Counted from the stretch's first letter, positions 2,060 through 46,571 are shown. The stretch: DNA of 64,000 bases from Candidatus Woesearchaeota archaeon (GCA_017610005.1 JAFCCU010000002.1:18118-82117), one strand, 5' to 3'. Translations and numbers: made by a program. The notes: generated from the letters alone by a model not told the origin.

Positions 2060-3967
2060 GTGTTTCTATTGCCAGATATAATAAAAGAAATACTCAAGCA
2101 TATACCGGATAAGAAAATCTCTGAAGCCGCATTTGAAGGAGCAAATATTGTGCTCTACACTAAAGATGCAAAGTTCTTTAGAGAGAATAGCAGTTTAATA
2201 AAAGAGATAGTTAATACTATCAAAAAAAGAATTGAATTAAGACCGGATCCTTCCATATCCATGGAGGAAGATGATGCTGAAAAAGAGATTAAAAAATTAA
2301 TCCCTAAAGAAGCAGGGATCACAAATATTATCTTTGATGGCCAACGTTCCAAGGTAATAATAGAGGCTGAAAAACCAGGACTTGCAATTGGAAAAAGAGG
2401 AGATATCTTAGCAACAATTCGAGAAAAATGTTTCTGGATCCCAGTTATTAGAAGAACTCCTCCGATTAAATCTGCATTAATTGAAAATATTAGGGGTGTA
2501 TTGTATGAGCATAGTGATTACAGAAGGAAATTTTTAGACAAAGTAGGCCATAGGATTTATGATGGCTGGATTCGAGAGAAGAAACAAGAATGGATAAGAG
2601 TTTCAGTACTTGGTGCAGGGAGGCAGGTAGGAAGATCATGCTTTTTATTACAAACTCCTGAAAGTAGGGTATTATTGGATTGTGGAATTGATGTTGCTTC
2701 TTCTGAAAAAGATGCTTACCCTTATCTTGATGCACCTGAATTTAATATTAAAGAACTTGATGCAGTAATCCTCTCTCATGCACATTTAGACCACTGTGGT
2801 TTTGTGCCTTATCTTTTTAAATTCGGTTTTAGGGGTCCAGTTTATTGCACTAAACCAACAAGAGATATTGCAGCATTATTGCTTTTAGATTATGTAAAAA
2901 TTATGCGTTCAGAAAATAAAAAACCAATATTTGACCAAGATGACATTAAAGAGATGGTTAAACATACTATAACTTTAGAATTTGAAGAAGTAACTGATAT
3001 CACACCTGATTTGAGAATTACATTATATAATGCTGGGCACACAATTGGTTCAGCAATGATTCACATACATGTGGGCAATGGTCTTCATAATATGATGTAT
3101 ACAGGAGACATGAAGTATGGAAAAACTGAATTATTGAACCCTGCTGCAACCTCTTTTCCAAGACTTGAAACTTGTATACTTGAAAGTACATACGGTGGAA
3201 GAGATGATATTTTACCAAGAAGGGCAGACTGTGAAAATGAATTAAAAGATATTATTGCAAAGACCATTAAAAGAAAAGGAAAGGTTTTAATTCCTGTTTT
3301 AGGTGTTGGACGAGCTCAGGAAGTGATGGTAGTTGTTGAAAAGATGTTAAAAGAGAAGAAGCTCAAAAAAGTTCCAGTTATAGTTGACGGAATGGTTTGG
3401 GATGTTACAGCAATTCATACAACCTATCCTGAATTTTTAAACAGAGAACTTAAAAAAATGATCTTTCATAAAGACACTAATCCTTTCTTATCTGAATGTT
3501 TCAGGAGAATTGGCTCTCAAAAAGAACGTAGTCAAGTTATCGAAGATGAAGGCCCTTGTATAATTATGGCAACCTCCGGAATGCTTGTTGGCGGCCCTTC
3601 TGTTGAATACTTAAAACGCCTTGGAGATAATCCTAAAAACTCCCTAGTCTTTGTATGTTATCAGGGAGCAGGCTCTTTAGGAAGAAGAATTCAGAGAGGA
3701 GAAAAAGAATTAATTATGGCAACAAATGGAACCAAGCAAGAGATATTGCATTTGAAAATGGAGCACCACACTATCTCTGGTTTAACTGGACACTCTGGAA
3801 GAAATGAATTAATGAACTTTATCCAAAACTGTAGTCCTAGACCTAATAAGGTAATTTTTAATCACGGTGAAAATTCAAAAGTTTTAAACTTAACAAGCTC
3901 CATGCATAAACGCTTTAGAATTGAAACAATCGCACCAAGAAATCTTGAATCTGTTAGAGTTAAGTAG
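2060..3967 (+). CDS. fttA: Archaeal CPSF1 homolog (aCPSF1/FttA-type KH + metallo-beta-lactamase + beta-CASP ribonuclease)
   Basis: 635 aa with an MBL motif HAHLDHCG and downstream beta-CASP motifs. N-terminal KH-like region. GTG start 1 nt after the proteasome stop, giving the typical psmB-aCPSF1 neighbourhood. Confidence 0.9.
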   Translation: MFLLPDIIKEILKHIPDKKISEAAFEGANIVLYTKDAKFFRENSSLIKEIVNTIKKRIELRPDPSISMEEDDAEKEIKKLIPKEAGITNIIFDGQRSKVIIEAEKPGLAIGKRGDILATIREKCFWIPVIRRTPPIKSALIENIRGVLYEHSDYRRKFLDKVGHRIYDGWIREKKQEWIRVSVLGAGRQVGRSCFLLQTPESRVLLDCGIDVASSEKDAYPYLDAPEFNIKELDAVILSHAHLDHCGFVPYLFKFGFRGPVYCTKPTRDIAALLLLDYVKIMRSENKKPIFDQDDIKEMVKHTITLEFEEVTDITPDLRITLYNAGHTIGSAMIHIHVGNGLHNMMYTGDMKYGKTELLNPAATSFPRLETCILESTYGGRDDILPRRADCENELKDIIAKTIKRKGKVLIPVLGVGRAQEVMVVVEKMLKEKKLKKVPVIVDGMVWDVTAIHTTYPEFLNRELKKMIFHKDTNPFLSECFRRIGSQKERSQVIEDEGPCIIMATSGMLVGGPSVEYLKRLGDNPKNSLVFVCYQGAGSLGRRIQRGEKELIMATNGTKQEILHLKMEHHTISGLTGHSGRNELMNFIQNCSPRPNKVIFNHGENSKVLNLTSSMHKRFRIETIAPRNLESVRVK

Positions 3968-4000
3968 TCTTCAGACTTCTTACTTCTTACTTCAGACTGC
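3965..4000. repeat. Octamer repeat family element (CTTCAGAC / GTCTGAAG units)
   Basis: agtcttcagacttcttacttcttacttcagactg immediately after the aCPSF1 stop. Part of the dispersed family listed in the findings. Confidence 0.5.
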
Positions 4001-4058
4001 TAACTGTTTGATCGCAAGTTTTATATATTTGTATAGTAAAATAGTGTCTGAGGGAAAA

Positions 4059-5507
4059 ATGTCAAAAAAGGTGTTTTTAGTATTACTAATACTGCTATGT
4101 GCTAGTTTTACATATGCAGAAGAATCATTAGATGTTCAAATTGAATTGATTGCAAATGACTTTTCACTTGTACAAGGCACTAATCAATTTGCAGAGTATG
4201 GGATAAAACTTACTAATCCTTATTCTTATGAAGATACCTTTGAATTTCGTGTAAAAGATTTTTCTTGGAATATTTGGACTAATCCCTTATCTGATTATGT
4301 TGGAGGGGGAGTGGATGTTCAACCAGGCGAAACTTATGAAGTCCAGCTTTTTATCGCCCCCACAGGAACTAAAAATATTGGAAGATATTCTATTCCTTTA
4401 ACAATCACAACAAGGTCTAATGGGGAAAAAATCCAAAAGAATCTTGTTGTAGATATTGTTTCAGGAGTCCCAACAATAAAAGAATATGAATTGGGGATTT
4501 TAGTTAATGTTGATCTACCTTCAGTTATCGATCCCCGTGGTAAAACCACCCTGGTTGTTGATGTAGAAAATGTATTTCCTCGAAATATTACTAACATAAA
4601 GTTAGAATTGATTTCAGAATTAATCAGGGGCAGGTCAAACTTTTCACTTGGAAGACTGGGTGAAGAAACATTAGAGTTTCCAATCGAATTAAATGATTAC
4701 CAAAGCCCTCTTCAAGACAAACTTGAATTAAGATTCTCTAAAGATGATGAAGTCTTTAAATCCGTTAAGGTGAATTATGCTGTTTTAAGTTACTCGATTG
4801 TAAATACTGTTTCTGATGAAACCTATGGCAAATTTTTAAAATCAACAAGAGTAATTGAAGTTCATAATGATGGAAATATCGCAAAAAGTCATCAGATTAG
4901 AATACCTTTAAAATTTGGAAGTGGAATTTTTACCAGGACAGATCCAAAAAACTATCTTGTAAAAGATGAAGAAGGCACATTTATGGTTTGGGATTTAAAT
5001 CTTGATAGTCAAGCCAAGTCAACAGTCACAATTAATCAAAATTATCAAGTATTATTTTGGTTTGGCGTTGTTATTATTTTGATAGGATTATTTTATTGGT
5101 TTATGCGTTCACCTGTGTTAATTGCAAAAGAGGCAAAAGTAGTTGAGATTAGAGATGGTGCAGTATCACAGTTGAAGGTATTGCTTCATTTAAGAAATAG
5201 AACTAACAAACCAATTACGGCAATTAAAATTGCAGATCGTGTCCCAGATATTGCACAAATTCTAGAAGAGTTTGACGTTGGTACAATTAGACCTGAAAAA
5301 ATTGTTAGAGACTCCAAAGGAGGTACTTTAATTAAATGGTCCATTTTGAAGCTTGATCCATATGAAGAACGAATTATCAGCTATAAATTAAGATCCAAAC
5401 TTCAAGTTCTTGGAAGCTTTGTCTTGCCTAGCGCCCTTGTTAAATTCAAGAGCCCCGGCGGTAGCAATCTAAAGTCTAAGAGTAAAATGGGGAAAATTAA
5501 TCAGTAA
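4059..5507 (+). CDS. Membrane protein with N-terminal signal peptide, large extracytoplasmic region, one internal TM helix and a C-terminal cytoplasmic domain
   Basis: The ORF-track ORF starts at 3921 but overlaps the aCPSF1 3' end. The in-frame ATG at 4059 (MSKKVFLVLLILLCASFTYA) gives a signal peptide. TM segment VLFWFGVVIILIGLFYWFM. Confidence 0.6.
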   Translation: MSKKVFLVLLILLCASFTYAEESLDVQIELIANDFSLVQGTNQFAEYGIKLTNPYSYEDTFEFRVKDFSWNIWTNPLSDYVGGGVDVQPGETYEVQLFIAPTGTKNIGRYSIPLTITTRSNGEKIQKNLVVDIVSGVPTIKEYELGILVNVDLPSVIDPRGKTTLVVDVENVFPRNITNIKLELISELIRGRSNFSLGRLGEETLEFPIELNDYQSPLQDKLELRFSKDDEVFKSVKVNYAVLSYSIVNTVSDETYGKFLKSTRVIEVHNDGNIAKSHQIRIPLKFGSGIFTRTDPKNYLVKDEEGTFMVWDLNLDSQAKSTVTINQNYQVLFWFGVVIILIGLFYWFMRSPVLIAKEAKVVEIRDGAVSQLKVLLHLRNRTNKPITAIKIADRVPDIAQILEEFDVGTIRPEKIVRDSKGGTLIKWSILKLDPYEERIISYKLRSKLQVLGSFVLPSALVKFKSPGGSNLKSKSKMGKINQ

Positions 5508-5526
5508 GAAGTCTGGAGTCTAAAGG
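5502..5526. repeat. Octamer repeat family element
   Basis: cagtaagaagtctggagtctaaagg overlapping and following the stop of the 4059..5507 gene. Confidence 0.4.
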
Positions 5527-5739
5527 GTATGGCTCAAAATTCAGGGGGGTTTGTAGTATTCAGTTTTTTAAATTTCTTTAGAGGGTTGTTAATTTTTTTG
5601 AAGATGTCATAATTGGGCCTGATTTAGAAAAACTCCAAAAAAGATTGTAAAAAATTAAAAAAATTAATTAAGGATGGCATAATACTTATTAATGAGAGAA
5701 CCCATTATGGATGATAAGTGCATAATAAAAATAAATTAA

Positions 5740-7551
5740 ATGGGTGAGATTATTAGGCAAAGATCTTGGTTAACAATTATTGTATCAATTTTGTTATTAT
5801 CTGTTCTTCTTTATTTGATTATGTTAAATGGCTATAAAGATAACAGAATTGCAGATGCAAAAGTAATATTCTGTGAGGTGATTTTAACACCTGCAACTGA
5901 AAGAGTGTGCGAAGTTGTAACAGGAAGTAATTCTTTGCTCATAAAAGGGAATGTGCTTGACCCAGATATAATTTATCATGGGGGAGAAGTTCTTGTTGAT
6001 GAAACTGGGTTAATTAGGTATGTTGGATGTAGTGAAAACAGACCAGAAGAGCTAGATGCTATCGCATTAGGGGCAACAAAAATTGAATGTGCAGAAGGTG
6101 TTGTTTCTCCAGGGCTTATTAATTCCCATGATCATTTGAATTATAATAATTACCCCTTAGCTGAAACTGGCAAGCGATATGACCATCGCAATGATTGGAG
6201 GTCAAGTTTATCTCCTTTCCCCTATAATTCTTCTCAAGAGAAAGTAACTTGGGCAGAGATGAGACAAACAATGGTGGGCACCACTTCTATTGTAGGCTCT
6301 GGGAATACATTTGGTTTTGTTCGTAACCTTGATTCTGAAAATGAACACTGGGAGATCGTTAACCAAACTGAAATAGTCTCAGATACATTCCCTCTTGAAT
6401 CTCCTGAAGATTATATTCAAAATGATAGGGAATGTTCCCTTTACTCCAAAAAGAATAGATTGAATCCTTATCCTGGGGTTTATGTGCCCCATGTTGCAGA
6501 AGGGGTTAATGAGGCCGCTCATAATGAATTTATTTGTTTAAGTAAGGAAATTGAGAGGAATTTCGCAATTGTTCATGGAATTGCTTTAGATGCTTATGAT
6601 GGAAAACTCATTGCAGAAAGGGGAGCTTCAATAATTTGGTCACCTAGGTCCAACGTAGCCCTGTATGGCAATACTGCCCCGGTTAAAATGCTAAAAAATC
6701 AAGGGGTATTAATTTCATTAAGCACCGATTGGACTCCCACTGGTTCAATGAACCTTGGGCGGGAACTTTTGTGTGCAGATGAATTGAATAAAAAATATTT
6801 TGGCAATATATTTAATGATAGGGAATTGTGGTTAATGGTTACTTATAATCCTGCGGTAGCATTACAAATTGATGATAAACTTGGATCATTAAAACCAGGC
6901 CTTTTTGGAGATATTGTAATTTATGATGGGAGGGGAAAAGATAATCCTTACCGTGCAGTTATAGAAGCGAATGTAAAAAGCACAGTTCTTGTTCTACAAA
7001 GATCATTATTTTCTCAAGGAAATTCTGTGTATGCTGGGAGTATTGCACTTTATGGGGATTCAGAAATATTAAAGGCATTGCCAGAACATGAGATTCAGGC
7101 GCCCCGTTTTGGATTTAGCAAACCCCTTTGCGAGCTAATTTCTGTTTGTGGTGTTGAAAAGACAATATGCCCCGTAAGGGAAACTTGGTGGACTATTTTA
7201 GAAGGTCATACTCCTCTTTCTATGGATGATTTATACAAAAAGAACCAAGATTCTTATCCTTTGTTCTTTTGTGGGGAACCCATTGATGAACCTACATGTA
7301 CTCCTTTTAGGTCAGGAGAATACACTGGAATTATTGCTAATAATGATCTTGATGGAGATGGGATACTTAATATTAATGATAACTGCAAAAATATCTTTAA
7401 TCCCATAAAACTAATGGATGGTAACATCCAACCAGATGCAGATAATGATGGAATTGGAGATGCGTGTGATAGATGCCCATTGGATGCAGGCAAAATGTGT
7501 AATTCATTTAATCCCTACACAAAAGAGATAATTAATATCTTTGATGGATAA
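5740..7551 (+). CDS. Membrane-anchored amidohydrolase-superfamily protein with C-terminal thrombospondin type-3-like Ca-binding repeats
   Basis: N-terminal TM (LTIIVSILLLSVLLYLIMLNG). Metal-binding HxH motif GLINSHDHLNYNNYP typical of amidohydrolases. C-terminal DxDxDGxxDxxDNC repeats (NNDLDGDGILNINDNC, DADNDGIGDACDRCPLD). Confidence 0.7.
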   Translation: MGEIIRQRSWLTIIVSILLLSVLLYLIMLNGYKDNRIADAKVIFCEVILTPATERVCEVVTGSNSLLIKGNVLDPDIIYHGGEVLVDETGLIRYVGCSENRPEELDAIALGATKIECAEGVVSPGLINSHDHLNYNNYPLAETGKRYDHRNDWRSSLSPFPYNSSQEKVTWAEMRQTMVGTTSIVGSGNTFGFVRNLDSENEHWEIVNQTEIVSDTFPLESPEDYIQNDRECSLYSKKNRLNPYPGVYVPHVAEGVNEAAHNEFICLSKEIERNFAIVHGIALDAYDGKLIAERGASIIWSPRSNVALYGNTAPVKMLKNQGVLISLSTDWTPTGSMNLGRELLCADELNKKYFGNIFNDRELWLMVTYNPAVALQIDDKLGSLKPGLFGDIVIYDGRGKDNPYRAVIEANVKSTVLVLQRSLFSQGNSVYAGSIALYGDSEILKALPEHEIQAPRFGFSKPLCELISVCGVEKTICPVRETWWTILEGHTPLSMDDLYKKNQDSYPLFFCGEPIDEPTCTPFRSGEYTGIIANNDLDGDGILNINDNCKNIFNPIKLMDGNIQPDADNDGIGDACDRCPLDAGKMCNSFNPYTKEIINIFDG

Positions 7552-7576
7552 AATTTTTTCTTATTTCCCCCACAAT

Positions 7577-7586
7577 CTTTATAAAT
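7577..7586 (+). promoter_or_regulatory. Putative archaeal TATA box for tRNA-Tyr
   Basis: ctttataaat centred ~27 nt upstream of the tRNA 5' end, the expected archaeal spacing. Confidence 0.4.
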
Positions 7587-7609
7587 CGGGTAATTTTTCA
7601 CAGTCTAAT

Positions 7610-7733
7610 CCTCGCCTAGCTCAATGGTAGAGCGTTCGGCTGTAGATCGTTGCTCGACTGTGTTATGATAACATCGAATGATAAGCAGCCAGCCGTTACC
7701 GAAAGGTTCCTGGTTCAAGTCCGGGGGCGGGGA
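7610..7733 (+). tRNA. tRNA-Tyr (anticodon GTA) with a ~52-nt intron at the canonical 37/38 position
   Basis: Hand-folded. Acceptor CCTCGCC/GGCGGGG plus discriminator A. D-arm GCTC-AATGGTA-GAGC. Anticodon stem TTCGG/CCGAA with loop CTGTAGA. Intron ~7647-7698. T-arm CCTGG-TTCAAGT-CCGGG. Short variable loop, i.e. archaeal/eukaryal class I Tyr. Confidence 0.75.
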
Positions 7734-7793
7734 CTCATTTTCTCAGTCTGAAGATAATAGTCTGGAGTACGGAGTCTGCAGTCTGGAGTAAAT
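7704..7793 (+). repeat. Direct repeat copy 1 (tRNA-Tyr 3' third plus ~55 nt downstream)
   Basis: aggttcctggttcaagtccgggggcggggactcattttctcagtctgaagataatagtctggagtacggagtctgcag is repeated almost exactly at 7878..7957. Confidence 0.8.
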
Positions 7794-7877
7794 ATATTTC
7801 CGCCATTCTCTTTAGAGGGTTAATTCGTAGAATTTACCCGAAAGTTTGCTCCTCTGCTTTACAAAGCAGAGACTGTA

Positions 7878-7957
7878 AAGGTTCCTGGTTCAAGTCCGGG
7901 GGCGGGGACTCATTTTCTCAGTCTGAAGATAATAGTCTGGAGTACGGAGTCTGCAGT
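7878..7957 (+). repeat. Direct repeat copy 2 (duplicate of the tRNA-Tyr 3' third plus downstream sequence)
   Basis: Same ~80-nt sequence as 7704..7793. It is preceded by two strong hairpins (gggttaattc-gta-gaatttaccc and ctctgcttt-aca-aagcagag). Confidence 0.8.
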
Positions 7958-8110
7958 AAATATGTATTGAAAACTGAATTTTTCTCTCGTCTAAGCTCCC
8001 TACAGAAAGATTTATAAACAACTCCCAAATCACACAGTAGAGATGGGGCATTTTATCTTCTGAGAGCAATAACAAGTTGTTATAGTTATTAGTAGGTCAA
8101 ATGCAAACAC

Positions 8111-8248
8111 GCCCTGGTGGTGTAGTCGGACTATCATAAAGCCCTGTCGAGTTATTGGAAATGAAAATTTTCAAACACAGCAAGGCTTTGACCCGGGTTC
8201 GAATGGTTGAGTGTGAAAGCACCAACACAGAAAATCCCGGCCGGGGCG
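8111..8248 (+). tRNA. tRNA-Asp (anticodon GTC) with two introns: canonical (after the anticodon loop) and non-canonical (just after the T-loop)
   Basis: Acceptor GCCCTGG/CCGGGGC plus discriminator G. D-arm GTGTAGTCGGACTATCAT, similar to known archaeal tRNA-Asp. Anticodon stem AAGCC/GGCTT with loop CTGTCGA. Intron 1 ~8151-8183. T-stem CCGGG, loop TTCGAAT, then a 31-nt insertion (8205-8235) before the T-stem 3' strand CCCGG. Confidence 0.65.
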
Positions 8249-8264
8249 TATCCCATAATATTTT

Positions 8265-8360
8265 GGGTCGGTAGCTCAGGCTGGTAGAGCGCTTGGCTTT
8301 TAACCAAGCGGTCGCGAGTTCGAATGGTTTTAAACAACCTAGAAAATCTCGTCCGACCCA
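8265..8360 (+). tRNA. tRNA-Lys (anticodon TTT) with a 22-nt non-canonical intron just after the T-loop
   Basis: Acceptor GGGTCGG/CCGACCC plus discriminator A. D-arm GCTC-AGGCTGGTA-GAGC. Anticodon arm CTTGG-CTTTTAA-CCAAG. T-stem GCGAG, loop TTCGAAT, insertion 8326-8347, T-stem 3' CTCGT. Confidence 0.7.
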
Positions 8361-16726: not shown

Positions 16727-16785
16727 CAGTCAGAAGTCAGAAGTCTGAAGTCAGAAGTCAGAAGTCTGAAGTCTGAAGTCTTCGG
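16727..16785. repeat. Tandem octamer repeat (GTCAGAAG / GTCTGAAG x ~7) immediately 3' of rps12
   Basis: ggcagtcagaagtcagaagtctgaagtcagaagtcagaagtctgaagtctgaagtcttcgg. A related unit (cttcagac) sits at 16848-16860, directly after the stop of the convergent lipid-kinase gene. Confidence 0.85.
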
Positions 16786-16858
16786 TGTATATATTTATTG
16801 TAGATTTTAAATTGTTATTGGTTTTAATAGAAAATACTTTTTACTGTAAACTTCAGAC

Positions 16859-17830
16859 TCAAAATTGTTTCACAATTTTGTACGCTTTTGGGATAACTCT
16901 TACAGAATATTGAGTTTCTTGAAGTTGCCCAGATATTACATTTCCATCTGATTCAATGAAATGTCCTTCCCTCAGCTTAAACTCGATATGCTCTCCCTTG
17001 TATAATTTTGCATGTCTTGGTTCATGTTGATTAAGGCAGGTTAAGGGTGAATTTAGAATCTGACCTTTGTTCATTGCATCATAAACAACTATTCTTGCGA
17101 GTCCGTCATCAAGGGGCCCAGGAGGCGCTACCCAAATGCCTGCTCCAGGCGTGAAACCTTTTGCAATAATTAAATCAAATGCCGGTTTATTTCTTTCAAC
17201 AATCTTACCATCAACTTTCAACCATTCAATATAAATTGGTTTGTGGGGAATTAAATTCAGCAAGCCTGCTCCTACATGGGCTGGAATTCCCCTAGATTGT
17301 TTCCTTTCTTTTAATTTTTCAACCCTCTTAATATGTTCAGCAGTCCAGCCAAACCCAAGAAAGTTAAGTGAGTAAGCATCAATCCCTCCAGTTATTTCTA
17401 AAATATCTACTTCTTTTGATTTTCCTTCAACTCCTAAAAGAAATAAATCTTCAAGCGCGTTTGGCAAACCGAGAGCGAAAGCATACCCATTTCCTGTTCC
17501 TGCAGGAATCCATACAATTTCAGGCATATTTTCAAGATGATGGTGCCTTAAGTATGTAACAAAATCAAGCACAGTTCCATCCCCTCCAATCCCCCAAAGC
17601 CTTTCATGGATCCCTGGGTCAAAAAAAGGCATTTGAAACACACCATTAAGAAGCACGGTCTGAGAAATATCTGGGGTAAAGTCATGCCCCGCAGCATTGT
17701 AAACTTCAACATATTGTTCTATATCAAAAGAAATGGGTTGCTCCCGACTAAAAAAACTCCTCCTGCGCCTAACTCCTTCAGCTGCAGGATTAGTAAGTAT
17801 TAGGGCACCATTCACAAAAATGAGAAGCAA
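16859..17830 (-). CDS. DAGK-catalytic-domain family lipid kinase (YegS/BmrU-like)
   Basis: GIGGDGTVLDFV (GGDGT) and WIPAGTGNGYAF (P.GTGNDFAR-like) motifs. TTG start 16 nt downstream of the ileS stop. Confidence 0.7.
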   Translation of the reverse strand: MLLIFVNGALILTNPAAEGVRRRRSFFSREQPISFDIEQYVEVYNAAGHDFTPDISQTVLLNGVFQMPFFDPGIHERLWGIGGDGTVLDFVTYLRHHHLENMPEIVWIPAGTGNGYAFALGLPNALEDLFLLGVEGKSKEVDILEITGGIDAYSLNFLGFGWTAEHIKRVEKLKERKQSRGIPAHVGAGLLNLIPHKPIYIEWLKVDGKIVERNKPAFDLIIAKGFTPGAGIWVAPPGPLDDGLARIVVYDAMNKGQILNSPLTCLNQHEPRHAKLYKGEHIEFKLREGHFIESDGNVISGQLQETQYSVRVIPKAYKIVKQF

Positions 17831-21546: not shown

Positions 21547-21623
21547 AACAAGAAGTTACAAATTATTCTGATTTATCGAACACTTTATACCCTAGACTAT
21601 ATACTCTAGACTATTATTATGGG

Positions 21624-21768
21624 GTGTAAGGTTTAGGAGATAATATTTTTCACTCCAGACTCCAGACCCCAGACCCCGTACTCCAGATTGTTGTAGGGTA
21701 TAAGGTATAAGGTTTAGGAGATATTATTTTTCACTTCTGACTTTAGACTTCAAACTTCAGACTGATAG
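21624..21768. repeat. Tandem ~70-nt duplication upstream of the first surface-protein gene
   Basis: Two copies of ggtataaggtttaggagataatatttttcact-C/T-c-A/T-gact... Each ends in octamer-family units (ccagactccagacc / cttcagact). Confidence 0.7.
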
Positions 21769-27985: not shown

Positions 27986-29587
27986 ATGAAGAAATTTGTA
28001 TTTGTAGTCATTCTTTTTTTACTCTTTTTAACAGCGTGTGACAAAGATACAGATGGTGATGGAATTTCTGATACTGAAGATAATTGTATTGGTATTAGAA
28101 ACTCGGATCAAATAGATTCAGATAAAGATGGCTGGGGGGATCCATGCGATTTTAATGAAGATCTAAGTGAAACACTTTTATATTTTTCCGCAACCTGGTG
28201 TACTTATTGCCATGAACAGTTACCAATTATTCGAGAACTTGATCAAGACTTTCCAGATTTAGAAATTCAATATCTTGATTTTGATGCAAGGCAAGATTTA
28301 GTTAGGGAATATGGTATTGTGGGTGTGCCTCATTATGTATTTATAAAAGGAGATTGTTGGAAAAAAACAAGAGGTACAACAAGTTATTCAGAATTAGTTA
28401 ATTGGATGGGAAAGGGTGCTTGCGCAAGATCAGCAGCAGTCCGTAGCCAAGGAGTCAATTTGCAGTCTGAAGTCATAAGTCAGAAGTCACTCAAACCCCA
28501 AACCCCAAACCCCAAACCCCAAACCTTACCAACTGGTTGTTGTATAAATCCTAATGAAAATGCGTGTGTTTATTCTGATGATATTGATAAATGTTGCCCA
28601 GTAGATGGTTATGAAGAATCAATAGGACCGCAATCACAAGCTGAATGTAAAGAACATTGGTTCTTTCCCCACGCAACAGAAGAAGCATGCAGCGTAATGG
28701 ATCCATTAACTTATGAAAATGCACAATATTGTGAATTTGGGTGCTGTTGCGAGGCTACCCCCATAGGTATAGCTGCATTTGCCTCAGAAAAAATCAAGTG
28801 TAATGATTATTGGGGAAGTTATGAAGAATTAAATTGCACGGTAAATGATTGTTCTAAATTTATTGAAGGGGGGGCAACATTAAAGACTGCTTCTCGTGTT
28901 TCTCCAATGGCAACAATCTCAGTTACTCAAACAGAAGATGAAACTTGCGTTGATGAATTGTATATTTTTTGTACAGTAAATCCTTTAGCTACTGAGATAT
29001 CAAATTTACCTGCTGGCGCAATAATTACTAACAACTGCATTGAATTCACCCCCACTGAAGCCCGTAGTTATTCAATTACGTTTAGAGAGGGAGATTATTA
29101 TTCAGAGGTACTAAACTTAGAGGTAATAGACTGCTCTGATCCGCCAGTTTTAGGATTCTTGCGAAATCGGAATGTATACAAAAATCAGATATTTAGTATT
29201 AGGGTACGTGCTACTGGGACAGGAGATTTGACATATGTAGTAGAGGATATGCCTGATGATGCCAAATTCAATCCAAAAAAATTAAAATTTTCTTGGATTC
29301 CAAGAGAGGAGAACGTTGGCAAACAATATAATGTTAAATTTATTGTGATAGATTCAAATGGGAGAACTGATGAAAAAACAGTTGAACTTAATGTTAGAAA
29401 TTATTCTTTCATGTGGATAGCTGGTTTGTCATTGGCCCTTGCAGGTTTACTTTACTTAGGTGCATTATTTTCCGGATTGCTTGAATCTCTAACATGGTTT
29501 TCCTCTTCTGCATGGATATATGTTGCAGGGGCTTGTATTGCGATATCCTTTATTCTGGTCGCGCTTTATTTTCTTTCGGGATTATGA
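27986..29587 (+). CDS. Cys-rich modular surface protein D with thrombospondin type-3 repeats and a thioredoxin-like CxxC domain
   Basis: Lipobox-like signal (FLLFLTAC). TSP3 repeats DKDTDGDGISDTEDNC / DSDKDGWGDPCD. Trx-fold motif LLYFSATWCTYCHEQ...GVPHYVFI. Pro/Thr linker encoded by repeats. Signature module ~28535-28860 (GCCINPNENACVYSDDIDKCCPVDGYE...EACSVM...GCCCEA). He_PIG-like LPAGAIITNNCIEFTPT. C-terminal TMs. Confidence 0.8.
   Translation: MKKFVFVVILFLLFLTACDKDTDGDGISDTEDNCIGIRNSDQIDSDKDGWGDPCDFNEDLSETLLYFSATWCTYCHEQLPIIRELDQDFPDLEIQYLDFDARQDLVREYGIVGVPHYVFIKGDCWKKTRGTTSYSELVNWMGKGACARSAAVRSQGVNLQSEVISQKSLKPQTPNPKPQTLPTGCCINPNENACVYSDDIDKCCPVDGYEESIGPQSQAECKEHWFFPHATEEACSVMDPLTYENAQYCEFGCCCEATPIGIAAFASEKIKCNDYWGSYEELNCTVNDCSKFIEGGATLKTASRVSPMATISVTQTEDETCVDELYIFCTVNPLATEISNLPAGAIITNNCIEFTPTEARSYSITFREGDYYSEVLNLEVIDCSDPPVLGFLRNRNVYKNQIFSIRVRATGTGDLTYVVEDMPDDAKFNPKKLKFSWIPREENVGKQYNVKFIVIDSNGRTDEKTVELNVRNYSFMWIAGLSLALAGLLYLGALFSGLLESLTWFSSSAWIYVAGACIAISFILVALYFLSGL
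28461..28527. repeat. In-frame simple-sequence tract inside gene D: octamer-family units followed by (AAACCCC) x 4.7
   Basis: cagtctgaagtcataagtcagaagtcac then aaacccc x4 plus aaacc (28493-28525). It encodes QSEVISQKSLKPQTPNPKPQT. Confidence 0.85.
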
Positions 29588-31065: not shown

Positions 31066-32469
31066 GTGAAAAAAGAACTTATATATTTTTTAATGGCATT
31101 AGTATTATCTTTCTCAGTTGTTGGTGCTGGTTGTGATGGTTCAACCGGATTATGTGATGCTCCAGAAGAAGGACAAGAATGTATTTACGAAACAGATTAT
31201 GGATTTAATCTATACTTAAAAGGAACTTGTTCTGATGGGCAGATTGATCCAGTGACAGATAAATGCTCACAAGAAAGAGTGGGCGTGCCAGTTCAAATTG
31301 AAGAGTATTACTGCAATACTTACGGGCAGTGCCACATGATGCAAAAATGGTGCCCCAATGGGTGTTTAAATGGGGAATGTTTGCCTTCTGGTATACCTAC
31401 AACTTCTGCTACTCCTGGATGTTATGATGAAGATGGGGGTATTTTTTACGATCGACAAGGTACTTGCACAGATAAATTTGGAACCCACACAGAAAGTTGT
31501 GATTATGCAAAAGGGTATAGAATAACTGAATATTATTGTGTAAATGTAACTGGGGGAGATGGATGTGGGGGAGGAGTTTGTGGGGATGATGATGTTCCTG
31601 AATTCCGATGCATGGCGCAAGGCACAAGATGTAGTGGGGGTTATTGTGAGAGGGGCGCTTGTACAACTGAACTTTATATGGATAGTGCAACTCCTGGTTG
31701 TTGTTTGAACCCTAAAACAAGACCTTGTGATTATGTTTCTAATATTAGATCTTGTTGTCCTTCATCTTGGCAGGGATATGCTGCATGGGATGAACCTGGA
31801 CCAAAAGGGATATTTGATTGTGCAGCTGCTTGGTTTTTCCCTTCTGACTCTCCAGAGGCTTGTGCAGCCATGGCAGAAGCTGAGCATCCAAAAGCAGACA
31901 TGTGTGGCTTTGGCTGTTGTTGTTACAAAACTCCTAGTGATGAAATAAGGTCAGACCAACAAACCCAGTCAGAATGTACTGGCACCGATAAACAATGGGT
32001 AAATTTTGGTACAATAACTGAATGTACCCCCCAATATTGCCATGGTTACTTTGATGGGGGCACGCTTGCAGATGACCCAGATGTTCCAACCACAACTACC
32101 AGTGTGGAATACACTCCTGGCTCACCTCAAGAAGATGATGATGGGGATGGGGTAGTGAATGGGATTGATAATTGCATAAATACATTCAATTCTCAGAATA
32201 ATATTGATAATGATGAGTTTGGAGACGCATGTGATCCTGATATGGACAATGATGGAATAATAAATGAGGAAGATGAATGTCCTCTTGATATTACAAAATC
32301 AGTTAAACCTTGCAGTGACAAACAAATAGCCCCATTGTGGTTTTTGGCAGGAGGCGCATTAGCGGGATTAATTGCATCTTTTTTTATTCCTGGCGCAACA
32401 ATTATTATTGGATTGCTTATTGGTGCGATTTTAGGATTAATTGCATTATTATTGGTGAGTTCATTATGA
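31066..32469 (+). CDS. Cys-rich modular surface protein E (two CxDxDGG-type repeats, signature module, TSP3 repeats, C-terminal TM)
   Basis: GTG start. Signal MKKELIYFLMALVLSFSVVGAGC. Signature module ~31696-32050 (GCCLNPKTRPCDYVSNIRSCCP...EACAAM...GCCCYK). TSP3 DDDGDGVVNGIDNC...DPDMDNDGIINEEDEC. TM FFIPGATIIIGLLIGAILGLIALLLV. Confidence 0.8.
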   Translation: MKKELIYFLMALVLSFSVVGAGCDGSTGLCDAPEEGQECIYETDYGFNLYLKGTCSDGQIDPVTDKCSQERVGVPVQIEEYYCNTYGQCHMMQKWCPNGCLNGECLPSGIPTTSATPGCYDEDGGIFYDRQGTCTDKFGTHTESCDYAKGYRITEYYCVNVTGGDGCGGGVCGDDDVPEFRCMAQGTRCSGGYCERGACTTELYMDSATPGCCLNPKTRPCDYVSNIRSCCPSSWQGYAAWDEPGPKGIFDCAAAWFFPSDSPEACAAMAEAEHPKADMCGFGCCCYKTPSDEIRSDQQTQSECTGTDKQWVNFGTITECTPQYCHGYFDGGTLADDPDVPTTTTSVEYTPGSPQEDDDGDGVVNGIDNCINTFNSQNNIDNDEFGDACDPDMDNDGIINEEDECPLDITKSVKPCSDKQIAPLWFLAGGALAGLIASFFIPGATIIIGLLIGAILGLIALLLVSSL

Positions 32470-33659: not shown

Positions 33660-35078
33660 ATGTGCAAAATGAAAAGATTAATACCCCTGTTTATATTCTT
33701 ATTTGTAATTAGTTTTGTGTATGGTGGGACATACAATCCTCCAGCTCAAGGAATTGGGGCAATGACTTCTGCTTGGTGTATTGATGGAGATGGGCCCGAC
33801 ACTGGAGATTTTAGTACTCATCCAGATTATAGTGGAGACACAAACTGGGCCCCAGAACCAAGAAAAGTTAAAAGTTTTTGTACAAGCCAAATAGATTACC
33901 CTCATCAAAGAGAAGATTCTTGTGTTGATGGATTGTACTCTTTAATGGAATGGGAATGTACTGGCTGTGCAGGTGGGGGCAGTCAAGAATGCGATAACCC
34001 TTTAGATACTTGCGAATTTGGGTGTGTTCATGGGGCATGTTTAGATTCAAGACAAGATTTATTGAACCACATTTATGGGGCAGATAGCCCTGCTTCACTT
34101 TGGTTTGAAGGCCAGTGTAAGGATTCTGATGATCATGATGGGTTTTTATATGATAAATATGATGGAATGGATTATACCGTCCAAGGGGTCTGTGTTGATA
34201 GTAGAGGAGATGTATTTATTGATTATTGCAATAAAGGGCATTTACAAGAATATGTTTGCACTACCGGGGGAGACTGCACTCCACTTGATGAACCAGATGA
34301 TAATGAATGTGACTTGTGTAAGAATGGTAAGTGTATTACTCTTGATAAAACAGTTAGTGGATGTTGCTTAAGTGAGTTTACAACTGGGTGTGGGTATGTT
34401 GATAAATTAGATCAATGCTGTCCAGATTATGGCACTTACGCAGGTGATGATGAGACTGGTCCCACTAGCCCCGGAGATTGCCGTGATAATTATTTTTATG
34501 AAAGAGAAGATACAGAAGCTTGCAGTTTAATTCCTGATACTTTTGAAAATAAAGATTTATGTTTTAGTGGCTGCTGTTGCGATCTTGATACTGAAGGTAA
34601 TCCTCTTGGAAAGCCTTTAAAAAAAGTTGAATGTAACTTATGGCTTGCAGATGGTGTAATGGAACAATTTGGGGGATGTAATCCAGAAAATTGTTTAGTC
34701 GCATCAGGGGGGCAATCATTAATTTCAGGAGAGAGGGATAGCGATCAAGATGGGGTTAATGACGCAGAAGATAATTGTATTTATATCCCAAATCCAATAA
34801 ATGATGATGGGATCCAACTAGATTCAGATAATGATGGTTTGGGAGATGCCTGCGATCCAGATGATGATAATGATGGTATTTTGGATGTAGATGATGACCC
34901 AATAGTCCCTGAAACTTTTATGGAAAAATTATTTGCTTCAGAATCTTTCTGGGGGATACTTATTGCAATATTTGTTGTCCTTGCATTAATATTTTTTACT
35001 TCATTAACTTGGATACCAATTACCCTAATAGGTATTGGAATAGCACTAGCAGGAGTTTTAATTGAGTTTTTGGGGTGA
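33660..35078 (+). CDS. Cys-rich modular surface protein G (signature module plus TSP3 repeats plus C-terminal TM)
   Basis: Signal MKRLIPLFIFLFVISFVYG. Signature module ~34359-34700 (GCCLSEFTTGCGYVDKLDQCCPDYGTY...EACSLI...GCCCDL). TSP3 DSDQDGVNDAEDNC...DSDNDGLGDACDPDDDNDGILD. Confidence 0.8.
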   Translation: MCKMKRLIPLFIFLFVISFVYGGTYNPPAQGIGAMTSAWCIDGDGPDTGDFSTHPDYSGDTNWAPEPRKVKSFCTSQIDYPHQREDSCVDGLYSLMEWECTGCAGGGSQECDNPLDTCEFGCVHGACLDSRQDLLNHIYGADSPASLWFEGQCKDSDDHDGFLYDKYDGMDYTVQGVCVDSRGDVFIDYCNKGHLQEYVCTTGGDCTPLDEPDDNECDLCKNGKCITLDKTVSGCCLSEFTTGCGYVDKLDQCCPDYGTYAGDDETGPTSPGDCRDNYFYEREDTEACSLIPDTFENKDLCFSGCCCDLDTEGNPLGKPLKKVECNLWLADGVMEQFGGCNPENCLVASGGQSLISGERDSDQDGVNDAEDNCIYIPNPINDDGIQLDSDNDGLGDACDPDDDNDGILDVDDDPIVPETFMEKLFASESFWGILIAIFVVLALIFFTSLTWIPITLIGIGIALAGVLIEFLG

Positions 35079-40297: not shown

Positions 40298-40415
40298 ATC
40301 AGTCTGGAGTTAGAAGATTGAAGTTTGAAGTTTGAAGTTTGAAGTTTGAAGTGAAAAAAGAAGTTCAAACCACAAAACTCACACCTCAAATCTCATATCA
40401 GTCTGAAGACTGAAC
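40298..40415. repeat. Octamer/heptamer repeat element in the divergent valS / ABCE1 intergenic region
   Basis: atcagtctggagttagaagattgaag then (gaagttt) x4 then ...atcagtctgaagactgaac, which ends in the hairpin cagtc-tgaa-gactg. Confidence 0.8.
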
Positions 40416-46262: not shown

Positions 46263-46571
46263 CTTACCACTAACCTTCACTGGCACAATAATCTCACTAT
46301 TATTCTCCTTGATAATAACCTCATGCTCACCAGGTGGCAACTCAAAGGTTACCTTCGTCCAATCGTTAACAGTCTGAAGTTGAAAGTCTGAAGTTGAAAG
46401 TAACTTTAGACTTCGGACTTCGGACTTCTGACTTATTTGGGCTGTCCACACCTCAAACCCCTCTCCCCTAACCCGCAAAACAACTTCTCCATCAGTCTCA
46501 ATACTAGCTGGTGACACTGCAATTCCCTGGGCCAATGGAATTAATAATAAAAAAAGAATTAGATATTTCAT
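46158..46571 (-). CDS. Small secreted protein with a C-terminal TM anchor (137 aa)
   Basis: Signal MKYLILFLLLIPLAQG and a C-terminal hydrophobic helix. Translationally coupled to the upstream LTD protein (4-nt overlap). It contains an in-frame octamer-repeat palindrome at 46369-46435. Confidence 0.6.
   Translation of the reverse strand: MKYLILFLLLIPLAQGIAVSPASIETDGEVVLRVRGEGFEVWTAQISQKSEVRSLKLLSTSDFQLQTVNDWTKVTFELPPGEHEVIIKENNSEIIVPVKVSGKESSVFIGGLIVVIIVSFGLLIYFFTQRFINQASF
46369..46435. repeat. Octamer repeat family element, imperfect palindrome, in-frame inside a CDS
   Basis: cagtctgaagttgaaagtctgaagttgaaagtaactttagacttcggacttcggacttctgac. It encodes ...ISQKSEVRSLKLLSTSDFQLQTV... on the minus strand. 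Confidence 0.8.

Follow-up and report, generated by a model that had tools for sequence, protein, structure and literature searches.

Partial copies of tRNA genes are reportedly left behind in archaea and bacteria by integrative elements as attR/attL remnants, an observation attributed to Reiter in 1989 and to Williams in 2002. In the Thermococcaceae, a review describes partial tRNA copies as usually being attR or attL sites, with repeats of approximately 44 bp and 9-23 kb of element DNA (PMC9897764). The locus studied here resembles such remnants, as a complete tRNA gene is accompanied by a direct repeat of only its 3' part, which starts near the anticodon arm and runs on past the 3' end, and the fragment can readily pass for an unusual tRNA. 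Unlike those remnants, which come with an integrase, 9-23 kb or more of DNA and repeats of 40-50 bp, it has only 94 nt between the copies, no integrase and a repeat of 81-87 nt; moreover, the repeat includes a host-specific trailer and the spacer resembles the promoter and intron of the host gene. The locus also shares features with tandem tRNA duplicates and pseudogenes that undergo concerted evolution, namely a head-to-tail order, an intact copy beside a degenerate one and perfect identity over a tract bounded by divergence. It departs from them in that the whole 5' half was lost and one third of the tRNA is left, in that the identical tract contains a non-tRNA trailer and in that conversion is here something we infer. 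Heavily interrupted tRNAs and a fragment near a complete gene are likewise reminiscent of the split and tri-split tRNA genes of Nanoarchaeum equitans and Caldivirga maquilingensis, but the locus has no complementary leader/trailer pair, no partner 5' half within the 64-kb window, no BHB (bulge-helix-bulge) that could be recognised by eye at the junction and no conservation. In Caldiarchaeum subterraneum, a tRNA-Thr fragment and intron gain have been linked to an inserted element (PMC3293823); there the fragment is a 5' one and a 1.8-kb element encoding a recombinase lies in between, whereas the fragment described here is a 3' one.

The window (the whole 64-kb stretch of DNA that was analysed) is archaeal core chromosome of approximately 35% GC and is DPANN/Woesearchaeota-like. 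Genes for a proteasome subunit, for the termination factor FttA and for an amidohydrolase (5740-7551) precede a tRNA cluster, which is followed by rpoH, by rpoB split into B'' and B', and by rpoA' and rpoA''. Elsewhere the window encodes aminoacyl-tRNA synthetases, ABC proteins, enzymes of sugar-nucleotide metabolism and surface proteins. The relatives of RpoB'' were Woesearchaeota and Nanoarchaeota MAGs, the nearest of which (locus L001) showed 86% identity and the next approximately 68%, while the best match among metagenome contigs reached 78%. A protein search with the amidohydrolase (P0001) returned the source contig at 100% identity and a next best match at 60%. Thrombospondin type 3 (calcium-binding) repeats were observed in several large proteins (5740-7551, 27986-29587, 31066-32469 and 33660-35078), combined with varying partner domains (amidohydrolase, thioredoxin or unknown); probably they are secreted or sit at the cell surface, as is typical of DPANN archaea.

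The tRNA genes of the locus encode tRNA-Tyr, tRNA-Asp and tRNA-Lys, each bears at least one intron and all are located 5' of rpoH, in an order (tRNA-Tyr, tRNA-Asp, tRNA-Lys, rpoH) that is common in Woesearchaeota. Default ARAGORN reported no tRNA in the window and missed all three genes, because every tRNA in the window has introns. The tRNA-Asp(GUC) gene (8111-8248) contains two introns, of approximately 33 nt by the anticodon loop and 31 nt in the T loop, and tRNA-Lys(UUU) (8265-8360) contains a T-loop intron of approximately 22 nt. In L001 (3215-3365), tRNA-Tyr has a T-loop intron that is absent from the tRNA-Tyr of the window, and tRNA-Asp lacks the anticodon-side intron; introns are therefore gained and lost rapidly in this lineage. 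The tRNA-Asp gene is preceded by a promoter and leader of approximately 100 nt, composed of TTTATAAA, approximately 12 nt, AAATCACA and then ATGGGG.AT.TTATCTTCTG(A), and found also in L001 (3397-3495) and L081 (2495-2585). This element was kept in relatives at 78-86% RpoB'' identity, even in L081, which has no tRNA-Tyr. The leader had no Rfam match and could represent a small RNA or a leader that is processed. The coordinates of the features are collected in Table 1.

Table 1. Positions of the features of the tRNA-Tyr locus and of the period-7 arrays, counted from the first nucleotide of the window.
Feature	Position	Strand	Description
TATA box of tRNA-Tyr	7578-7585	+	TTTATAAA; 24 nt 5' of the tRNA start; putative promoter element
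tRNA-Tyr(GUA), intact	7610-7733	+	Rfam RF00005, 50.1 bits; ARAGORN -i Tyr(gta) i(37,52)
tRNA-Tyr exon 1	7610-7645	+	
tRNA-Tyr intron	7646-7697	+	
tRNA-Tyr exon 2	7698-7733	+	
Repeat copy 1	7702-7782	+	100% identity between copies; last 32 nt of tRNA-Tyr and 49 nt of trailer
T-run	7738-7744	+	TTTTCTC; directly 3' of tRNA-Tyr; second copy at 7913-7919
Heptad array in trailer	7745-7793	+	AGTCTGA AGATAAT AGTCTGG AGTACGG AGTCTGC AGTCTGG AGTAAAT
Spacer (B), 94 nt	7783-7876	+	Read as decayed, internally deleted tRNA-Tyr promoter, anticodon region and intron ends
Promoter-like relic	7795-7825	+	TATTTCCGCCATTCTCTTTAGAGGGTTAATT; matches 7562-7596 (TATTTCCCCCACAATCTTTATAAATCGGGTAATT)
Hairpin 1	7817-7839	+	GGGTTAATTC-GTA-GAATTTACCC; 10 pairs, one T-T mismatch, loop GTA
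Hairpin 2	7852-7871	+	CTCTGCTT-TACA-AAGCAGAG; 8 bp, loop TACA
Repeat copy 2	7877-7957	+	tRNA-Tyr 3' fragment (7877-7908) and trailer; no 5' exon, no usable acceptor partner
tRNA-Asp conserved promoter and leader	8011-8110	+	TTTATAAA..AAATCACA..ATGGGG..TTCTG, common to L001 and L081; right-hand limit of the lineage-specific extra DNA, tRNA-Asp next
Further period-7 array	3964-4005	-	
Further period-7 array	5503-5523	+	
Further period-7 array	16728-16776	+	
Further period-7 array	16839-16859	-	
Further period-7 array	21602-21687 and 21736-21763	-	
Further period-7 array	28464-28489	+	
Further period-7 array	40301-40352	+	
Further period-7 array	46371-46434		

The intact tRNA-Tyr gene has a C1-G72 pair and a 52-nt intron at the canonical 37/38 position, and a homologous intron was found in the tRNA-Tyr orthologues of many Woesearchaeota loci. 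The anticodon-loop intron was conserved in L001, L009, L010, L030, L037, L069, L070, L073, L076 and L078, with the common pattern CTGCTCGAC ... hairpin ... GGATGA ... CAGNCAGCCG. The GA/GATGA elements of this intron resemble a K-turn or a C'/D'-like motif, and its CAGCCG is complementary to CGGCUG of the tRNA-Tyr anticodon stem-loop. Judging from what is known of archaeal promoters, the TATA box upstream of the gene would act as a promoter element, and CTTTATAAA is also present 5' of tRNA-Tyr in L001 and L076. Both copies of the T-run were flagged by a terminator-like scan, and this motif is likely an archaeal termination signal.

The repeat search of the window revealed a direct repeat that is exact over 81 nt, with 175 nt from start to start; an exact match of this length cannot arise by chance. 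The first-pass annotation had described a block of approximately 80 nt recurring 174 nt downstream, of which the recurrence was confirmed and the distance was corrected by one nucleotide. It had also placed the start of the block in the variable loop, and this proved to be inaccurate, as the repeat begins two nucleotides earlier, with nucleotide 5 of exon 2, which belongs to the anticodon stem (3' strand). The tRNA part of the repeat comprises 2 nt of the anticodon stem, the variable loop, the T arm, the acceptor 3' strand and A73. Beyond the exact block, copy 1 contains an extra heptad (AGTCTGG), after which AGTAAATAT is present in both copies (7787-7795 and 7955-7963). The matched repeat is 87 nt with a one-heptad (7-nt) indel, and both copies read AT before diverging. 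Accordingly, the array of copy 2 (7920-7961) lacks the sixth heptad of copy 1. The identical part accounts for 81 of the 175 nt of the period, and the two copies lie head-to-tail with no foreign DNA between them.

The heptads of the trailer belong to a genome-specific family of period-7 tandem repeats with the variants AGTCTGA, AGTCAGA and AGTTTGA. The motif AGTCTGGAGTA, allowing at most one mismatch, was found 10 times in the window against 0.73 matches expected. Most of the arrays are intergenic, located directly past stop codons and oriented as the upstream gene, and some form inverted pairs between convergent genes. No heptad arrays were found in approximately 1 Mb of related Woesearchaeota loci. 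As a guess, the arrays could have a role associated with 3' ends or terminators, and, being slippage-prone, they are a plausible substrate for rearrangements such as the one described here.

The DNA between the two copies was compared with the part of the tRNA-Tyr unit that lies 5' of the repeat. Semi-global alignment of the spacer to positions 7540-7701 gave a score of 40.5, in comparison to 20.4 ± 4.7 for shuffled sequences; this score was reached by 2 of 2000 dinucleotide shuffles and by none of 2973 random windows. An independent alignment with MAFFT recovered the same colinear blocks, and the identity of the spacer to the tRNA-Tyr 5' unit was approximately 60%. BLAST searches with the spacer returned no match elsewhere in the window or in 160 related loci. 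Within the promoter-like relic, TATTTCCGCCATTCTCTTTAGA-GGGTTAATT aligned with TATTTCCCCCACAATCTTTATAAATCGGGTAATT of the tRNA-Tyr promoter, with the TATA core destroyed (TTTATAAA changed to TTTAGAGG). This block is followed by GTAGA, which matches the end of exon 1, by TTGCTCCTCTG, which aligned with TTGCTCGACTG at the 5' end of the intron, and by AAGCAGAGACTGT, which aligned with AAGCAGCCAGCCGTTACCG across the boundary between the intron and exon 2. Against the upstream region of the window's own tRNA-Tyr, the local score of the promoter-like part was 30, in comparison to 15.1 ± 3.1 for random windows (6 of 4974 reached it), and exceeded the scores of all 217 tRNA upstream regions of the relatives (mean 14.8, maximum 27). 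Three other places in the window scored 30-34 against the relic, two of them gappy matches in coding DNA and the third at 5575. In an alignment of 14 sequences, including 13 orthologous introns, the spacer kept the invariant intron-end columns AGC.G..AC.G, although the intron-like block taken by itself was not significant. Left of the exact block the similarity to the intact gene faded gradually (AGCAGAGACTG versus AGCCGTTACCG). On these alignments, the spacer is probably homologous to the promoter and 5' part of tRNA-Tyr, with a similarity that is significant but modest. Two other derivations of the spacer were rejected. Its reading as a full degenerate intron-less tRNA-Tyr gave z=2.1 for the mature 5' part and conflicted with the better promoter alignment, and homology to the DNA 3' of copy 2 gave no signal.

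The spacer is 94 nt long, not approximately 85 nt as first described, and it does contain the two hairpins that were noted in it. The 10-bp hairpin (gggttaattc/gaatttaccc) is present, with the correction that it includes one T-T mismatch and a GTA loop. The other, given as 9 bp (ctctgcttt/aaagcagag) with the loop aca, forms with 8 bp and the loop TACA; arms of 9 nt would leave a loop of 2 nt. Both hairpins belong to the predicted minimum-energy fold, and the spacer was more structured than its shuffles (z of approximately -3, 1 of 200). The GTAGA of hairpin 1 is located at the expected anticodon end of exon 1. In the pairwise alignments, the two arms of hairpin 2 fall in separate blocks, the 5' arm in one that matches the intron 5' end (TTGCTCgaCTG) and the 3' arm in one that matches the intron 3' end (AAGCAGccAG), and the intron centre is absent; the multiple alignment instead treated the 5' arm as inserted. 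The window contains exactly two copies of the 13-mer TCTTTAGAGGGTT with (GT)TAATT after it (5575-5587 and 7809-7821), in each case a few tens of nucleotides 3' of a heptad array. It may be a recurrent promoter-like intergenic module or a chance match (BLAST E of approximately 0.07). As a common promoter motif it was discarded, with two exact copies only and a count at two mismatches that was not enriched.

The first-pass annotation had also raised the possibility of a second, highly unusual tRNA (split, permuted or multi-intron) sharing the 3' segment, which the searches did not bear out. The Rfam tRNA model detected nothing on copy 2 even at E<=10. Every segment of 8-99 nt within 7783-7915 was then deleted in turn and the products were submitted to ARAGORN with anticodon-intron detection, a scan that covers two-intron models. 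It returned only two models, both junk, in which the anticodon had 4 nt and the acceptor stem was built from G-U pairs plus a mismatch, in comparison to 35 variants for tRNA-Asp and 57 for tRNA-Lys (both multi-intron) when applied to the neighbouring genes. A 'tRNA-Ser(gct)' proposed by ARAGORN at a lowered threshold (7801-7909) was rejected for its mismatched stems. The TTCCGCC at 7798-7804, previously suggested to be a 5' acceptor strand, aligned with TTCCCCC of the promoter region and not with the acceptor stem. In the predicted folds, the flanks of hairpin 2 formed directly opposed loops of 2 nt and 3 nt, not two 3-nt bulges 4 bp apart (judged by eye), and the 64-kb window contained no second 5' part of tRNA-Tyr. 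The functional elements lost in copy 2 are the TATA core, exon 1 save GTAGA and the acceptor 5' strand. The fragment has no D arm, anticodon arm or acceptor partner and therefore cannot make a tRNA.

Related genomes were compared for the presence of the extra segment, and it was absent from them. L001 has one tRNA-Tyr gene, located approximately 30 nt before the conserved tRNA-Asp promoter, and none of the 160 related Woesearchaeota loci contained two tRNA-Tyr 3' ends, so that copy 2 is the sole second 3' end in the window or in these loci. The relatives have a single copy, and the extra 175 nt are therefore lineage-specific. The closest relative is only 86% identical in RpoB'', and the single copy in all relatives fits any lineage-specific event. 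Exact protein look-ups with RpoH, RpoB'' and the amidohydrolase, together with the metagenome contigs, gave no copy of the locus from the same species, and an exact 21-mer across the tRNA end and trailer had no matches in the metagenome contigs.

With moderate confidence, we favour the interpretation that copy 2 is a non-functional fragment of a local, lineage-specific duplication of the tRNA-Tyr unit. According to this interpretation, a unit of approximately 230 nt, comprising the promoter, tRNA-Tyr with its intron, the T-run and the heptad trailer, would have been duplicated in tandem, with the join in the AT-rich end of the heptad array (AGTAAATAT to TATTTCC). In copy 2, the TATA core would then have mutated, and deletion would have removed the greater part of exon 1 together with the central part of the intron, a loss of approximately 60 nt, after which the remainder could have diverged into the present spacer of 94 nt and two hairpins. 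The 3' 81-87 nt of copy 2 would have been homogenised recently, probably by gene conversion, or re-copied, and the sole difference between the copies may be the slippage of one heptad. The intact upstream gene supplies tRNA-Tyr. The contrast between approximately 60% and 100% identity and the fading left boundary fit a later conversion tract or re-copying over the 3' part. The spacer is colinear with the part of the unit 5' of the repeat, even though the effect is modest and competing local matches at chance level exist. Weighing against this history, 100% identity over 81 nt next to a spacer of approximately 60% requires a second event, presumably conversion or re-copying, and three other places in the window, including the one at 5575 that shares TCTTTAGAGGGTT, reach the local score between spacer and promoter. 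The simple tandem duplication offered by the first-pass annotation is retained as to the duplication and not as to its simplicity, with 81 of 175 nt identical and the rest apparently descending from an old copy of the promoter and 5' part that suffered an internal deletion.

The most familiar alternative is the integration scar that had been proposed at the outset, in which an element or virus targeting tRNA-Tyr through an att site of at least 81 nt left copy 1 as attL and copy 2 as attR, and was deleted almost wholly, down to 94 nt. Partial 3' copies at integrated elements are the commonest source of archaeal tRNA fragments (PMC9897764), and the locus has a complete gene, a fragment with its trailer and an exact 81-nt repeat that runs from the anticodon stem past the 3' end, as in att sites; a left boundary in the anticodon stem is what tRNA-targeting integrases also produce, and the duplication is missing in relatives. 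Against this, the 94 nt between the copies contain no ORF and look less like foreign DNA than like the promoter and intron of the host tRNA-Tyr, and the identical block takes in the host-specific heptad array. The nearby integrase that a scar would lead one to expect did not materialise: no integrase, transposase or viral protein was present among the 40 largest ORFs of the 64-kb window, and 2.9 million viral contigs contained no exact match to the tRNA 3' end, hairpin 1 or the trailer. Loss through att x att recombination would, moreover, have removed one of the copies. We consider a scar unlikely. An ORF for a split integrase reading through the repeat was also sought, and none exists. Rather improbable, too, is a copying event in one step, whereby the 81-87-nt block was placed approximately 94 nt downstream by template switching or slippage primed in the heptads, the spacer being intergenic DNA that was already there and that resembles the promoter by chance or through a shared promoter-type motif. 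The right boundary within a period-7 array and the difference of exactly one heptad are in line with such an event, as are the second occurrence of TCTTTAGAGGGTT at 5575, again 3' of a heptad array and suggestive of an intergenic module that recurs, and the few other places in the window that match the spacer-promoter score. It is at odds with the colinear similarity of the whole spacer, which beats 2973 of 2973 random windows, with the invariant intron-end columns kept in the spacer and with L001, where no spacer-like DNA lies 3' of tRNA-Tyr.

A functional RNA gene, with the spacer and copy 2 transcribed from a TATA-like AAATATAT at 7790 or from the TCTTTAGAGGGTT element to give a tRNA-like RNA, the 3' half of a split tRNA, or an element serving in processing or as a decoy, seems very unlikely to us. 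The minimum-energy fold of positions 7783-7910 is cloverleaf-like (z=-2.1) and shows three hairpins, a T arm and an acceptor-like helix (TTTCCGCC/GGCGGGGA), the excess structure of the spacer points in the same direction, the genome has many fragmented, multi-intron tRNAs and the 100% identity could reflect constraint. Nevertheless, the tRNA models do not fit, the fold has no D loop with G18G19, a C occupies position 33, the pairs at positions 1 and 2 are U-G, and inspection of the candidate junctions by eye revealed no bulge-helix-bulge. By our own estimate, an acceptor-like 7-mer occurs by chance in about one in four stretches of 94 nt, and the one found here aligns with promoter DNA. One anticodon suffices for Tyr, the window has no second 5' half, the arrangement is absent from all relatives (160 loci) and recency or conversion accounts better than selection for the identity of the non-coding trailer. 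The narrower proposal of an expressed tRNA-Tyr-derived RNA whose 3' part is held identical by selection, as a 3' half working in trans, which would be a new split-tRNA arrangement for Woesearchaeota, or as a two-hairpin decoy or processing element with a T-arm/acceptor minihelix, is one we regard as extremely improbable. If the fragment were expressed, it would bear on the origin of split tRNA genes; nothing here points that way. We likewise give little credence to an assembly artefact, in which the A-B-A order was made by the metagenome assembler and exists in no single genome. The window apparently derives from a single metagenome-derived contig, the sole protein match at 100% identity lying on one contig of 111 kb, and an independent copy of the locus was not found, but for an assembler to build A-B-A, reads must bridge both junctions, from A into B and from B back into A. 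Furthermore, 81 nt is shorter than the usual maximal k-mers and paired reads and would normally be resolved correctly, and the one-heptad difference and the diverged homologous spacer are unlike a collapsed or looped graph.

The feature is real but ordinary, a truncated and most likely non-functional duplicate of the tRNA-Tyr 3' end that probably arose by local duplication, and copy 2 can be set aside in the gene set of the locus. Such fragments are routinely mis-annotated as extra, odd or split tRNAs, and the risk is high in DPANN archaea, whose multi-intron tRNAs are missed by default finders. The locus provides a small example of a tRNA gene fragment probably formed without a mobile element, beside a slippage-prone heptad family.
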